Assembly (NCBI GenBank): GCA_024405635.1
Contig: JAKSOL010000006.1
Location: forward strand, 46,136 to 110,135
Direction of reading: 5' to 3'
DNA length: 64,000 nucleotides
From: Salinivirgaceae bacterium
GTDB lineage: Bacteria > Bacteroidota > Bacteroidia > Bacteroidales > SZUA-534
The notes below the pieces were generated by a model. It searched no databases, was not told where the DNA came from, and was given only the letters and a program-made list of their open reading frames with translations. Below are positions 17,371 through 53,510 of the stretch, piece after piece. The position numbers were made by a program, and so were the translations under genes. Each line of letters begins with the position of its first letter. The first letter of the stretch is position 1.

Positions 17371-17457
17371 TGGTGCCCAGAACAAGACTCGAACTTGCAC
17401 GAACTAATGTTCACCACCCCCTCAAAGTGGCGCGTCTACCAATTTCGCCATCTGGGC
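17371..17457 (-). tRNA. tRNA-Leu(GAG)
   Basis: Acceptor GCCCAGA...TCTGGGC-A-CCA; anticodon arm CCACT-TTGAGGG-GGTGG; long variable arm; T-loop GTTCGAGTC. Confidence 0.95.
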
Positions 17458-17465
17458 TTATGATG

Positions 17466-17549
17466 TGCCTAAAACAGGACTCGAACCTGCACGTTCTTGC
17501 AAACGCTAGTCCCTGAAACTAGTGCGTCTACCTATTCCGCCATTTAGGC
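17466..17549 (-). tRNA. tRNA-Leu(CAG)
   Basis: Acceptor GCCTAAA...TTTAGGC-A; anticodon arm CTAGT-TTCAGGG-ACTAG; long variable arm; CCA not fully encoded. Confidence 0.95.
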
Positions 17550-48904: not shown

Positions 48905-49951
48905 ATGACGTTTAAGCTAAACGATACACTGATTGATACCGAAAACTTTTCGGCAGAAAATGTACGGCAAGCTTTGGGCAACACCGAAGGAAACAACGAA
49001 ATTGTTGACTTTTTAGAACGTTGGTGCAACAAAAGTGCAACCATAACACTTAAAACATCGGGCTCAACGGGAACGCCAAAGGTAATTGAGGCTCAAAAAA
49101 CGCACATGCTAGCATCTGCAAAACGCACTTGCAGTTTCTTTGGTTTAGAACCAAAATCGATTATGCTACTATGCTTGCCTGCTACTTACATAGCTGGACA
49201 AATGATGATTGTGCGCGCAATGGTTTCGGGCGCCAATTTGCTTGTAGTTTCACCTCGCGGAAACATTGTTGATCAAATAAATCAACCCATTGATTTTGCT
49301 GCAATGGTGCCAAATCAAGTGCTAAAAAACTTGACTTCAGCACAAAAATTCAACCAAATAAAAACATTAATAATTGGTGGTGGTAAAGTAGGGTATAACA
49401 TTGTAAATCAGCTATCTGAAATAACCACAACTTGCTACGAAACTTTCGGAATGACCGAAACGCTATCGCACATTGCGGTGCGAAAAATTTGGCCAAATGT
49501 TCAGCCTAATTTTGTAGCCTTTGATGGAGTTTTGGTTTCGGCAACAAACAACAACAATCTCGTCATTTCCGATAACAGTTTGAACATCAGCCAAATGCAA
49601 ACAAACGACATTGTGCGAATAATATCCGCAACCGAATTTGAATGGCTTGGTCGCACCGATTTTGTAATAAACAGCGGAGGCATAAAAACATCGCCCGAAA
49701 GCATTGAACAAATACTTGAACCGTTGATTGGCAAGCAGTTATGTATCACATCAAAGCCCGATGAAAAACTGGGTAACCGCATTGTGCTTGTGGTTGAAGG
49801 TGAAAAAACCAACATTACCACACAACTCAACATATTGGAACAAAAAGTAAGTCGCTACAGCGTGCCAAAAGAAGTTATTTGGATTAACCAACTACCTCGC
49901 AATAAAAACGGCAAACTCGACCGCTTAGCTTTGAGCGATATGATAAAATAA
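48905..49951 (+). CDS. menE: o-succinylbenzoate-CoA ligase (short Bacteroidetes type)
   Basis: TSGSTGTPK, ETFGMTET, GRTDFVINSGGIK, NGKLDR. Start moved to the ATG at 48905. Confidence 0.88.
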   Translation: MTFKLNDTLIDTENFSAENVRQALGNTEGNNEIVDFLERWCNKSATITLKTSGSTGTPKVIEAQKTHMLASAKRTCSFFGLEPKSIMLLCLPATYIAGQMMIVRAMVSGANLLVVSPRGNIVDQINQPIDFAAMVPNQVLKNLTSAQKFNQIKTLIIGGGKVGYNIVNQLSEITTTCYETFGMTETLSHIAVRKIWPNVQPNFVAFDGVLVSATNNNNLVISDNSLNISQMQTNDIVRIISATEFEWLGRTDFVINSGGIKTSPESIEQILEPLIGKQLCITSKPDEKLGNRIVLVVEGEKTNITTQLNILEQKVSRYSVPKEVIWINQLPRNKNGKLDRLALSDMIK

Positions 49952-50000
49952 GTTGCTCACGCAAGCCAAAAAAAAACTATATTAGGAAAAAAATAATACT

Positions 50001-51473
50001 ATGGAACGCTCAGTTGTAATATTCAACCATCCGCTCATTCATCATAAACTATCGGTATTACGCAGCACCAAAACAGACTCAAAGCAATTTCGTGAACTGA
50101 TTACTGAAATTGCAGCGCTAATGATGTTTGACGCAACCAAAAACTTGCCACTTGAAAATGTTAACGTTGAAACACCATGCGGAACAGCACACTGCAAACA
50201 AATTGCAGGCAAAAAGCTGGTGTTTGTGCCCATTTTGCGAGCAGGTTTAGGCATGGTTGAAGGCGCTTTGCAAGTTGTACCAACCGCACGTGTTGGACAC
50301 ATTGGATTGAGCCGCGACGAGCAAACCCTATTGCCCGTTGAATATTACTGCAAATTGCCCCAAGATATTGACCAACGCGATGTGTTTGTGCTCGACCCCA
50401 TGCTAGCAACTGGAGGTTCGGCCATTGACGCTATTGGCCAAATTAAAAAACGCAATCCTCGCAGCATAAAATTCCTTTGCATAATAGCGGCTCCCGAAGG
50501 TCTTGAGGCTTTGAAAAATGCGCACCCCGATGTCGATATTTTCTGTGCTGGACTCGATGACCATTTGAACGAACACGGATACATTGTTCCTGGTCTTGGC
50601 GATGCTGGCGACCGCACCTTTGGAACTGTAGTAAAAGAATCGAAACAAGAGAGTAAAAAATCGTTGTGTACTGATGCTGGCGAACGCACCTTTGGAACTG
50701 TAGTAAAAGAAACGAAACAAAAGAGTAAAAAATCGTTGTGGATTTTTGCAAGCATAGCTGTATTGTTGTGTGCAGCGGTATTCTTATGCAAACCAACTTA
50801 CCACTACTGGAAAAAACATTTTCAAAGGAAAAACCATATTGGAATAGTCTCAAAGAACAATAATTCAAAAAACAACGGAAATTTCAACGGCATTGATGTG
50901 TCACATTATCAAGGTAACATTGACTGGAAATTAGTTTCACAAAACCCTAATATTCAATATGTGTATATTAAGGCAACCGAGGGTTCTACTAAGGTTGATC
51001 ATAAATACAAGAAAAACAATAGAGAGGCTCGTGAAATGGGCATGAAAGTAGGTGCCTACCATTTCTTTACAACAACAAGTAGCGCAAGAAAACAAGCAGA
51101 AAATTTCATTTCAAACGCACCTGTTAAAGATCAAGACCTTATCCCTATGATTGATTTTGAAAACAACAGAGGTAAATGGAGCAAAAAACAAATACGTGAT
51201 AGCTTAAACGTATTTATCGATATAATTAAAAAGCACTATGGAAAAGACCCTATTTTTTATAGTGTGAATTCTCACTTCAACAAGTATTTGGCGCAAGATT
51301 TTAACACATATCATTCAATGATAGGCAGATATAATAAAGGAAAACAACCTCCGACTGCAAATTATTCTATTTGGCAATATTCCGACCGTGGAAGAATAAA
51401 TGGCATTCCAAAATTTGTGGACTTGTCAAGATTTCACCCAAAATACAATATTGATATACTTCTCTTGAACTAA
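50001..51473 (+). CDS. upp: Uracil phosphoribosyltransferase fused via a TM helix to a GH25 muramidase
   Basis: aa 1-209: [35 protein letters not shown]. aa ~247-263 form a hydrophobic helix. From aa ~295: [31 protein letters not shown]. One continuous frame. Confidence 0.9.
50601..50740 (+). repeat. Tandem duplication (68-bp unit, 72-bp period, 3 mismatches) at the Upp/GH25 junction
   Basis: 50601-50668 against 50673-50740, encoding [22 protein letters not shown] and [22 protein letters not shown]. Confidence 0.95.
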
Positions 51474-51847
51474 TTACTCTTTTTCGGAACTTCGCTTGCA
51501 AGATATTCTGTATAATAAACGTGTTCTTTGTAGAAAACTTTTTCGTGTTCAATAAATGAACTTTCTTCGTCTTTACTCTTAAAGGTTATGCCTACCTTGC
51601 ATTTGCCTATTTTACCTATAAAATTCTTTGATTTAGCATTATGGTCGGAAATTCTTATCCTGTAACTGCCGTTAAGTTCGTCAACAGCATAATGCGAATT
51701 ATTTTTTGAAGTTTCTAATGGTGGTAATTTGCTTAAAACATATAGTATAAACACTAAATGGTCTGCTATTGGTTCTTTTTCCCAATTTGCAATTTTGCGC
51801 TCGAAAATTTTTATTGTTTTATTTATATTTTCTATATTTGCAGTCAA
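51470..51847 (-). CDS. Hypothetical protein (SHY...RIRISDHNA motif); probably the 3' part of a longer ORF
   Basis: TTG start. The frame stays open upstream to 52018. Confidence 0.5.
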
Positions 51848-52018
51848 CTCTCCCAGCGATGTTGCAGTAGTTGAAATATGACGAAATGCCCTCGCTGCCT
51901 TTGATAAAACGCCACTTAATTGCGTTGCTGTCGGTAGGACGGAAGTCCGAGATAGGGAGTTTTTAGAAATAATTATTTCTAAATCAAAGCCGTTAGTTCC
52001 TTTACTTTCGGCTTTTTT

Positions 52019-52288
52019 TTATGCTGCTATGCTGCTAAATGCACGTTCAATAATTGTATTGTAGTCGGTTATATTTTCGTCGTAGTACCATTTGTTGATT
52101 GTTACAAAATTTGGTAGTCCGTTTGGTGTAGTCCAAATAAACTCTACCGCACTTTCGGCTTTACTTTTTATTGCTTTGTATAGGCTTTTGCGTTGGTCGC
52201 CTGTGTAGTTTTGGTAGGCTAACCAACTTTTTATTGATTCTTTGTAAGCATCAATATAGCCTTGTGATTTGTTTTCAATCTTATTCAT
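52019..52288 (-). CDS. Hypothetical protein (89 aa); in frame with 51470-51847 across one TAA
   Basis: Its ATG overlaps the MFS stop. Its TAA is followed by 57 sense codons that lead into the next ORF. Confidence 0.5.
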   Translation of the reverse strand: MNKIENKSQGYIDAYKESIKSWLAYQNYTGDQRKSLYKAIKSKAESAVEFIWTTPNGLPNFVTINKWYYDENITDYNTIIERAFSSIAA

Positions 52289-53510
52289 AAACTTTCATAC
52301 CCATTCCCTTGTATTTTGTGCCCATAAGCCACAAAAAGCAACCTGCCGAAATGGTAATCAACGTTAGCATAAAACAGCACCAACCTCCAGTTGAAAGCAA
52401 CGAGCCGGTTGACGTGCCAAGTATCGACGACCCCAAATAATAGAATAACCAATACAGCGAAGTGGCTGAACTGCGTCCTTCTCCTGCATTTTGCGACACC
52501 GTGCGACTAGCCATTGCATGTGTTGCAAAAAAGTTGAAAGTAAACACACACAAACCTAAAACAAGCAACCATAGTTGTTGGCTCAACATCATTAGCTGAC
52601 CAATAATGCTGCCAGCAACAAAATAACGTATAAGCACACGGGTACTATGTTTGTCAGACAATCGGCCTGCATAAAGTGACCCCAAAATGCCCAAAATGTA
52701 CATAAAGAAAATGCTGGCAATAATGGTATGCGGCAACGAATAGGGCGGCGCCTCTAAATGAAAACCAGTGTAGTTGTAAATGCTCACAAATCCTCCCATA
52801 AGCAAAAACGCACACAAGTACATTTGAATCATCAACGGAGTGCGCAAATAACCACGCATCTGTTTAAATTTTGTGCCGATGCTGAATTTGCTAGGCGTAA
52901 AGTGTTGCGAACTTGGAAAAATGCGATAAAACACAATTGCAATGCTAAACGTAATTAAACCAACAACAAACAATGTAGCTCGCCAACCTATTAACCCCGA
53001 AAGAAAAGCTGACACAATTCGGCCCGACATGCCACCAACTGCGTTGCCCGACAAGTAAAGACTTATTGCCAATCCAATTATCTTTTCGTCAACCTCTTCG
53101 TTAAGGTAAGTTAAAGCCACTGCCGAAACGCCCGACAAAAGCGCTCCACGAACAAAACTCACAGCCGACAAGGTTGCAAACCATGGCACGAATGCCGAAA
53201 TAAGCGTTAAAATCGACGAACTGAACAACGCAAAAGTCATCAACTTTTTCCGCGACCAACTATCGGCTTTTAACGAAAAGAAAAACAAACCAAAAGCCAT
53301 TCCTGCTGTTGCCATCGATACCGACCAACTACTTGTAGCTGGTGCAATTCCAAAATCTTTGCACAAATGCGGCAACATTGGCTGAAAAATATATAGTTGC
53401 GCAAAGACTGCCAATCCTGTCAAAAAAATACCGCGCTTTATTCTTGCAAAGCGCAAACTGCCTTTTTGTGCTTTGGGTTTATTGTGCTGAATATGTTGTT
53501 GTAAATGCAT
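52281..53510 (-). CDS. MFS transporter (YnfM-like)
   Basis: About 12 TM segments; ADSWSRK and AGRLSDKHS motif A variants; GLYLSGNAVGGMSGR-like motif. Confidence 0.9.
   Translation of the reverse strand: MHLQQHIQHNKPKAQKGSLRFARIKRGIFLTGLAVFAQLYIFQPMLPHLCKDFGIAPATSSWSVSMATAGMAFGLFFFSLKADSWSRKKLMTFALFSSSILTLISAFVPWFATLSAVSFVRGALLSGVSAVALTYLNEEVDEKIIGLAISLYLSGNAVGGMSGRIVSAFLSGLIGWRATLFVVGLITFSIAIVFYRIFPSSQHFTPSKFSIGTKFKQMRGYLRTPLMIQMYLCAFLLMGGFVSIYNYTGFHLEAPPYSLPHTIIASIFFMYILGILGSLYAGRLSDKHSTRVLIRYFVAGSIIGQLMMLSQQLWLLVLGLCVFTFNFFATHAMASRTVSQNAGEGRSSATSLYWLFYYLGSSILGTSTGSLLSTGGWCCFMLTLITISAGCFLWLMGTKYKGMGMKVYE

Follow-up and report, generated by a model that had tools for sequence, protein, structure and literature searches.

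We analyzed a 64,000-nucleotide stretch of contig JAKSOL010000006.1 from a Salinivirgaceae bacterium (assembly GCA_024405635.1, positions 46,136 to 110,135 of the forward strand), referred to below as the window and numbered from its first letter. The source is a gut-metagenome bin of 2.66 Mb in 36 contigs, 99.8% complete. At positions 50001 to 51473 of the plus strand lies a single open reading frame (ORF) of 490 codons without internal stops, in which uracil phosphoribosyltransferase (Upp) is followed by a muramidase domain of glycoside hydrolase family 25 (GH25). The predicted product has a mass of 55.4 kDa and a pI of 9.4. The features of the frame, with residue numbers in amino acids (aa), are the following:

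49926..49933, plus strand: candidate promoter TAGCTTTG of the whole fused ORF, matching the Bacteroidota -7 motif TAnnTTTG
50001..51473, plus strand: fusion ORF with Upp, duplicated junction, transmembrane helix and GH25 (ORF calling and domain profiles)
50025..50627, plus strand: uracil phosphoribosyltransferase domain, aa 9-209 (Pfam, TIGR01091)
50601..50672 and 50673..50744, plus strand: copies 1 and 2 of a 72-bp tandem duplication (Tandem Repeats Finder)
50640..50642, plus strand: position of the former upp stop, now TCG (Ser214), from the alignment of alleles
50736..50792, plus strand: predicted single transmembrane helix, aa 246-264 (hydropathy and flanking charges)
50892..51407, plus strand: GH25 muramidase domain, aa 298-469 (full-length Pfam profile)

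An earlier note, made from the letters of the window, had described the frame as Upp, a basic linker, one transmembrane helix and a GH25 domain with its catalytic residues, and ORF calling, Pfam and hydropathy bear this anatomy out. The Pfam profile UPRTase (PF14681) covers residues 9-209 with 253 bits (profile positions 3-206 of 206), and the NCBIfam equivalogs for upp score 291.6 bits (TIGR01091, cut-off 208.35) and 295.6 bits (NF001097). The phosphoribosyl pyrophosphate (PRPP)-binding loop and the C-terminal uracil-binding loop were both found by reading the sequence, and the nearest solved structure is the Upp of Bacillus caldolyticus (PDB 1I5E, E 7.5e-88). With a full-length match above the cut-off and both substrate loops, this half is predicted to be a true Upp. 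The second half is matched over the whole of Glyco_hydro_25 (PF01183; aa 298-469, 149.5 bits against a cut-off of 27, profile positions 1-180 of 180) and, among solved structures, by 2WAG (E 1.5e-32), 4KRU and 1JFX. Its catalytic aspartate is D299 in the motif GIDVS (50895-50897), and its DxE motif is D385-F-E387 in IDFE (51153-51161); D299, D385 and E387 sit in columns that are invariant across 12 GH25 homologues. Altogether, 34 of the 36 columns invariant in these homologues are kept, a count within the range spanned by the homologues themselves. The full-length match, the catalytic Asp and the DxE motif mark this half as a probable GH25 muramidase.

No in-frame ATG or GTG occurs between M134 and V300, in line with the earlier note, which had seen no ATG between Upp and the GH25 core. 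The classical alternative starts in this interval are TTG codons only, at 50664, 50736, 50763 and 50766. Each of the other five frames carries 10-27 stops across 50631-51470. Such a continuous frame, free of internal stops and canonical internal starts, is what is expected of a translational fusion, and it recurs in contigs X2, X3, X5, X7 and L211 from other samples. In Logan SRR17543910 and in GCA_024500545.1, gene calling gives this ORF as a single 490-aa gene, and a 490-aa allele is also called on L211 (JGI metagenome 3300020112). In the NCBI record for the contig, the fusion is uncalled and a 191-aa GH25 protein (P0357) is listed from GTG 50898. This protein starts one codon past the catalytic Asp, leaving out both D299 and the anchor, a start call that looks forced by the missing ATG. 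The 490-codon frame offers a correction to that record.

The stretch described earlier as a basic linker holds a feature that had escaped notice, an in-frame tandem duplication of 72 bp (50601-50744) with copies 93-95% identical; Tandem Repeats Finder gives a period of 72, 1.9 copies and 95% matches. Each copy comprises the final 9 Upp codons and 15 lysine-rich linker codons, and both copies are found in X2, X4, X5 and L211. An origin of the repeat as an attachment site was considered and rejected, since the copies are adjacent instead of flanking an insert and the sequence has no further occurrence in the genome. The former upp stop codon, TCG in copy 1, corresponds to ACG (Thr238, 50712-50714) in copy 2. 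Codon 206 (position 50617), which lies within copy 1, reads ACC (Thr) in the window, X4, X5 and L208 and ATC (Ile) in X2 and L211, while its counterpart in copy 2 is ACC in every allele. This pattern suggests gene conversion from the non-catalytic copy 2 into the functional C-terminus of Upp. The predicted helix, residues 246-264, is the sole strongly hydrophobic 19-mer of the protein, with a Kyte-Doolittle value of 2.52 against 1.41 for the next best.

The fusion is real, and both of its halves are transcribed. The interval 50590-50760, where the earlier note had allowed for a misassembly, was checked on assembled contigs from independent samples and studies. Contig X4 crosses 50559-50956 with 0 differences, a span that starts in the uracil loop of Upp, takes in the two repeat copies with the helix and reaches into GIDVS; X5 crosses 50363-50762 without gaps and with 1 difference; and X2 covers the junction by two overlapping pieces, 50527-50723 and 50700-51134. 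L211 has the same architecture and the same gene order. No indels, joints or stops were seen inside the ORF in X2, X3, X5, X7 or L211. Because independent metagenome contigs span the junction and the JGI contig encodes a 490-aa allele, the fusion is not an artefact of assembly. A loose end at 50740 in X3 and X6 was considered as an alternative junction and rejected, as it is a 21-nt chance match to the 34.8-kb contig of another organism. RNA comes from both halves: metatranscriptome X7 contains contigs over upp at 49947-50197 and 50410-50641 (depth 13-16) and over GH25 at 50889-51120 (depth 11.4), compared with a depth of 2.7 for its menE contig. The first of the upp contigs begins at 49947, 14 nt past TAGCTTTG. 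This box lies 68 nt upstream of the upp ATG and is the sole TAnnTTTG on the plus strand in 49801-50900; the plus strand between the Upp core and GH25 holds none. We infer that TAGCTTTG serves as the promoter of the fused ORF. Scans for sigma-70 promoters and terminators gave no signal above that of shuffled sequences.

How the fusion may have arisen can be read from its alleles, which were retrieved from the 90%-identity cluster of the 490-aa protein, the contigs of the shorter members then being compared. All of them share the gene order menB-menA-menC-menE-upp-...-MFS-DUF1893-GH43, where MFS is a major facilitator superfamily transporter gene that converges on upp:

52281..53510, minus strand: convergent MFS transporter gene, whose stop abuts the GH25 stop in alleles that lack an 819-bp insert (see the end of the text)

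Three allelic states were found. In the first (L209 and L210, from two runs), upp is a standalone gene of 213 codons that ends in VVKE-TAG exactly where the window has TCG. It is followed by ~75 nt with a 12-bp hairpin and a U-run (-20.4 kcal/mol, z = -3.0) and then by the convergent MFS stop, with no GH25 between upp and MFS. The flanking genes of these two contigs are 85-88% identical to the window in nucleotides, which points to a sister species. The second state (the window, L211, X2, X4 and X5) has TCG in copy 1 and ACG in copy 2 at the former stop, and ~0.84 kb of GH25 coding sequence in place of the ~75-nt intergenic terminator region; in L211, the stops of GH25 and MFS lie directly side by side. 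The third state, known from one assembly (L208, metagenome-assembled genome (MAG) GCA_045643365.1), belongs to the same species as the window (flanks 98.9% identical) and has a single repeat copy. Here, a 200-nt deletion between two A-runs takes out the helix and D299. Counting the missing repeat copy, 272 nt are lost in total, which shifts the frame, and a further nucleotide is lost in a T-run; the products would be a 225-aa Upp and a 101-aa GH25 remnant. The joint of this deletion was found in none of the eight runs examined.

The first state would be the simplest ancestor, because every other Upp stands alone and because a proper terminator separates the two convergent genes there. Since each repeat copy contains codons from both Upp and the GH25 tail, the duplication should be later than the fusion. 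The two copies differ at 3-5 positions and all strains of the second state carry both, so the fusion appears to predate the diversity within the species. We therefore favor, as the probable reading, a young and species-restricted read-through gene fusion. That the fused chain is made seems to us very probable, and whether the GH25 half also does selected work would be close to an even question, leaning slightly to the negative. Overall, the fusion looks like a tolerated, weakly selected insertion accident rather than an integrated bifunctional machine.

We propose the following course of events. In the ancestor, menE would have been followed by a upp gene encoding 213 aa, by a hairpin terminator and by MFS in convergent orientation. 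A stretch of ~75 intergenic nt, terminator included, would then have been replaced by ~0.84 kb encoding a signal-anchored GH25 of a kind common in Bacteroidales, and this segment would have arrived without a promoter, an ATG or a spacer on either side. Two routes to the sense codon at the former stop fit equally well. In one, TAG changed to TCG, and ACG arose after the duplication; in the other, the junction lay at the ATG of the donor (ATG-AAA-CAA-AAG..., a typical preprotein start), which later became ACG and TCG. The tandem duplication of the 24-codon junction would have stretched the tether between Upp and the helix from 12 to 36 residues. Transcription would run from the upp promoter and translation from the upp ATG, the Upp domain would fold in the cytoplasm, and the helix would act as an internal type II signal anchor, with export of the C-terminal GH25 by Sec. 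It is not unusual for a membrane protein to carry an internal anchor after a large cytoplasmic domain. The result would be an inner-membrane protein of 55 kDa whose muramidase stays tethered to the membrane on the periplasmic side, and the output of GH25 would be tied to the expression of upp.

The Upp half has a history of its own. No other match to PF14681 in the genome (99.8% complete) exceeds the cut-off. Its identity to the Upps of 38 relatives from the family and order is only 28-35%, compared with 66-79% to those of Clostridia from gut and rumen and of certain Bacteroidales MAGs, and in a tree it is nested among Clostridia Upps, distant from the family type. By this placement, upp (50001-50630) is to be regarded as a Clostridia-type xenologous replacement of the family-type gene. 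The family-type Upp is present in 38 of 41 relatives (a set that includes G001-G040) and missing in the genome of the window; several other rumen and gut Bacteroidales MAGs likewise carry the Clostridia type. The closest 80 Upp genes in GTDB genomes all end in FGTK* or FGTL* at 206-210 aa, and within 4 kb of these 80 loci there is no GH25, nor are menE or MFS found nearby. Matches by tblastn had suggested that the Upps of L022, L063, L076 and others extend past residue 209; these were rejected, as the matches read through stops and all of the proteins end in FGTK* or FGTL*. Family relatives retain menC-menE, and nothing from the fusion locus lies within the next 1.5 kb in them. The Upp half carries five substitutions at sites conserved to at least 95% among its relatives (Q14H, R47K, A74V, Y104S and I206T), of which I206T alone falls inside a PRPP or uracil loop motif. 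With pN/pS, the ratio of nonsynonymous to synonymous polymorphism, at 0-0.3, Upp is strongly constrained.

Several observations weigh against a functional read-through fusion gained in this species. The RNA contigs of X7 stop at the repeat, and none joins upp to GH25 across the junction. The net charge is +4 on either side of the helix, so the positive-inside rule alone leaves the topology unfixed. All other Upps seen, the RpiB-Upp fusions discussed below among them, have a free C-terminus, and an extension might therefore harm the enzyme; moreover, T206 of the window strain stands where 99% of relatives have Ile. Neither the 80 closest Upp loci nor the menC-menE loci of family relatives yielded an outgroup with upp at this site, and the preference for a gain in the species of the window over a loss in the sister species comes from parsimony. 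The GH25 half is accessory and dispensable, since it is absent in the sister species and inactivated in L208. Between the two GH25 haplotypes described next, divergence reaches 3.3%, against 0.2-1.2% in the flanks, and the pN/pS of the flanking genes (0.07-0.30) lies below that of GH25.

These haplotypes also bear on whether the muramidase is selected. One is the type of the window (X4, X3 and L208) and the other that of L211 (X2, X5 and X7); they differ by 24 of 735 nt, without any stop or indel, and pN/pS between them is 0.32-0.39. In X2, 8 of 19 GH25 changes are synonymous, as against the 19% expected under neutrality (binomial p = 0.016). There is, then, some constraint on the GH25 frame. 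The differences are unevenly placed:

51266..51415, plus strand: difference cluster with 20 of the 24 nt differences between GH25 haplotypes (haplotype comparison)

This cluster could be a recombination tract with a foreign signature.

The strongest alternative is that the fused chain is made and only Upp is under selection, with GH25 as a decaying C-terminal passenger that has no selected function. A piece of an accessory gene, lacking promoter and start, would have come to lie behind upp and been attached to it once the stop was lost. Such a passenger would explain why GH25 carries a deletion and a frameshift in L208 and is missing from the sister species, why its divergence and pN/pS exceed those of the flanking genes, with differences clustered in the 3' third, and why so few genomes of the family possess a GH25 (1 of 24). 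Against it, an AT-rich frame of 255 codons has stayed intact across at least five samples and between two haplotypes 3.3% apart, pN/pS is 0.32-0.39 and not ~1, and all catalytic residues are kept along with the invariant columns counted above. In addition, the fusion is older than the strain diversity, as judged from the 3-5 differences between the repeat copies, yet most strains are free of lesions. We consider a pure passenger unlikely on balance, although it is the most serious of the alternatives.

A second question concerns only the origin of the GH25 segment, and its answer is compatible with a read-through fusion. The GH25 half is the only GH25 in the genome of the window. Its nearest homologues, at most 57% identical, come from Paludibacteraceae, Prevotella, Bacteroidaceae and Muribaculaceae; they stand alone, are 220-300 aa long and have an N-terminal basic tail that leads into a hydrophobic anchor, as in MPKTKKKNSRKR...RRSRWALLAIGVLCCLSL. 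Because the standalone homologues share this start, the basic stretch and helix ahead of GH25 would be the captured gene's own signal anchor and not a purpose-built linker; the stretch including residues 246-264 is best read in this way. The segment could alternatively be the remnant of a prophage endolysin. PHROG endolysin families match the GH25 half at E 3e-39, a match that reflects the GH25 domain only, and the closest homologue, P0127 (57%), sits in a phage-like run of unannotated genes on the same strand with a Peptidase_C92 match. Another close homologue has a chromosomal setting, however, and many lie on long chromosomal Bacteroidales contigs with the layout of basic tail and anchor. 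The best viral-contig match in IMG/VR reaches only 43% identity. Around the fusion there are no phage genes, no holin and no integrase: the neighbors are menA, menC, menE, MFS, DUF1893 and GH43, and neither of the two small ORFs that follow is matched by Pfam, PHROG or PADLOC. The segment thus lacks the phage gene neighborhood that defines a phage cassette or prophage. The GC content at third codon positions (GC3) is 0.41 in the Upp half and 0.37 in the GH25 half, close to the neighboring genes (menE, 0.39), so that neither half is a fresh arrival. The total GC drops from 0.46 to 0.34 along the frame; the idea of a low-GC island marking recent transfer is weakened by the near-neighbor GC3. A prophage remnant is, in our judgment, rather improbable. 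The earlier suggestion of a phage-lysin gene captured onto the end of upp therefore divides: capture is supported by the sister species, where upp, TAG, the terminator and MFS follow one another without GH25, whereas a phage origin is disfavored by the 43% viral match and the flanks.

Two proteins might also be made from the one ORF, a tailed Upp from the ATG and a signal-anchored GH25 from an internal TTG, either 50664 (31 kDa) or 50736 (29 kDa, beginning MWIFASIAV), with the duplication having created or preserved the start. In-frame TTG codons at aa 222 and 246 each follow an A-rich stretch, AGAGTAAAAAATCG, and Bacteroidota start sites lack Shine-Dalgarno sequences and favor A-rich leaders. 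From 50664, translation would yield an ordinary basic n-region and anchor, as in the standalone homologues. By contrast, a start at 50736 has no basic n-region, and TTG starts are a small minority in Bacteroidota. The frame has no internal TAnnTTTG box either, and a read-through product would remain in any case, as no stop is present. We judge internal initiation to be improbable, slightly more so than a prophage origin.

Less plausible is that the fusion functions as a unit, a membrane-tethered oligomeric Upp coupling uracil salvage to peptidoglycan cleavage. Upp makes uridine monophosphate (UMP), which is a precursor of the wall precursors UDP-MurNAc and UDP-GlcNAc and is released as a by-product when lipid I is made. 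The periplasmic GH25 might then be clustered or gated by the oligomeric state of Upp, which would depend on ligands, and the 24-residue duplication might have been selected to tune the tether. Cooperation between the halves would connect pyrimidine salvage with wall turnover. The earlier proposal of a new link between nucleotide status and wall remodelling nevertheless finds no support, as the sister species has no GH25, one strain has deleted it, and it evolves faster than its neighbors. Finally, an artefact of assembly or sequencing, in which a single MAG would contain a chimeric join or have lost the stop, can practically be dismissed: the source is a metagenome bin and the tandem repeat exceeds assembly k-mers and breaks many Logan contigs, but the gap-free contigs X4, X5 and X2 from other studies cross the whole junction, the JGI contig from another metagenome has the same 490-aa ORF and synteny, and the ORF contains no joint or indel.

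The tolerated read-through fusion that we favor was compared with known proteins. Architecture searches in an index of 5.8 billion proteins covered the best 120 matches to the full-length sequence and, for residues 190-490, the best 120 of the 192 matching proteins with lengths of 270-857 aa; they were complemented by the 80 closest Upp loci in GTDB genomes and by a metagenome scan seeded on the junction. A second protein with PF14681 and PF01183 was found neither among the best matches listed nor in the 80 loci or the junction-seeded scan, and the literature yielded no paper combining Upp and GH25. The earlier statement that the architecture had no precedent holds for these matches; a distant second case may lie beyond the top matches listed.

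Like bacterial Upp (EC 2.4.2.9; TIGR01091, PF14681; PDB 1I5E), the first half has a full-length domain with PRPP and uracil loops; the other Upps examined stop 1 residue past FGT, whereas the fusion chain continues for 281 residues. With the standalone Bacteroidales GH25 proteins (P0134 from Paludibacteraceae, 241 aa; P0140, 268 aa; L143, 295 aa), the second half shares 39-57% identity, the catalytic D and DxE, and the layout of basic tail, hydrophobic helix, short spacer and GH25. Those are separate genes with their own ATG, while in the fusion the tail continues the C-terminus of Upp and the ATG is missing. The solved GH25 lysozymes (2WAG, the Psm autolysin 4KRU/4KRT, cellosyl 1JFX and PlyB 2NW0) resemble it at the sequence level over the whole domain. 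They are soluble or carry wall-binding modules and come from Gram-positive bacteria or phages; to our knowledge, none of them is tethered through a cytoplasmic enzyme.

Other fusions involving either domain differ in their arrangement. In RpiB-Upp proteins of Synergistaceae and Clostridia (~365 aa), Upp is C-terminal with a free FGTK end, and its partner is metabolically related. These fusions, with RpiB N-terminal to Upp (P0017-P0120, e.g., P0052 and P0021), are widespread in Synergistaceae and occur in some Clostridia, and would serve the path from ribose 5-phosphate through PRPP to UMP. Acyl_transf_3-GH25 proteins (~600 aa) are similar to the present fusion in having GH25 as the C-terminal module of a membrane protein; P0333, P0335, P0338 and P0340 combine the Acyltransferase_3 membrane domain (PF01757) with a C-terminal GH25. 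The nearest long match to the Upp half, P0004 (510 aa, on a 72-kb Logan contig), is 78% identical and joined to a xanthine/uracil permease domain (PF00860). Its Upp part stops at GYIVPGLG, without DAGDRIFGTK, and it may be a true Upp-permease fusion or a frameshift.

As in signal-anchor-release (SAR) endolysins and MltG, one helix is predicted to hold the muralytic domain at the periplasmic face of the inner membrane. MltG is an inner-membrane-anchored enzyme that cleaves glycan strands and is not a GH25. In SAR endolysins, the helix is N-terminal and weakly hydrophobic, in contrast to the fusion, where it is internal after 245 residues, has a Kyte-Doolittle value of 2.5 and stands in no phage context. 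The predicted helix is rich in I, L, V, F and C, and would thus not be of the weakly hydrophobic, Gly/Ala-rich SAR type.

The architecture is therefore unprecedented in these comparisons, yet an accidental gene fusion and an anchored muramidase are each of an already known kind, and it does not amount to a new system. For the organism, the fusion is probably of little biological importance. Its interest lies in the three stages alive in present populations, namely the state before fusion in the sister species, a fused gene with duplicated tether in most strains and decay in one strain, which together document in nature the way in which a multidomain membrane protein can originate. A secreted-enzyme gene without promoter or start can, on this reading, ride a housekeeping cytoplasmic gene via stop loss, with its own anchor as the export signal.

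PADLOC gave no match, and the only Rfam matches in the window are two adjacent tRNA genes at 17374-17549 on the minus strand. Immediately past the GH25 stop, and outside the fusion, lies one further variable element:

51488..52306, minus strand: 819-bp strain-variable insert (joint 51487->52307 in X2, X3, X5 and X8)

The insert is present in the window and in L208 (5197-6006) and absent in L211, X2, X3, X5 and X8, and it replaces the last MFS codons. The convergent gene junction seems to have taken up single-gene segments twice. The insert encodes an orphan 269-aa protein, a single ORF in L208, that has no Pfam, PHROG or PADLOC match. In the window, a 9-nt insertion at 52019-52027 brings in an in-frame stop and splits this ORF into parts of 125 and 89 aa.

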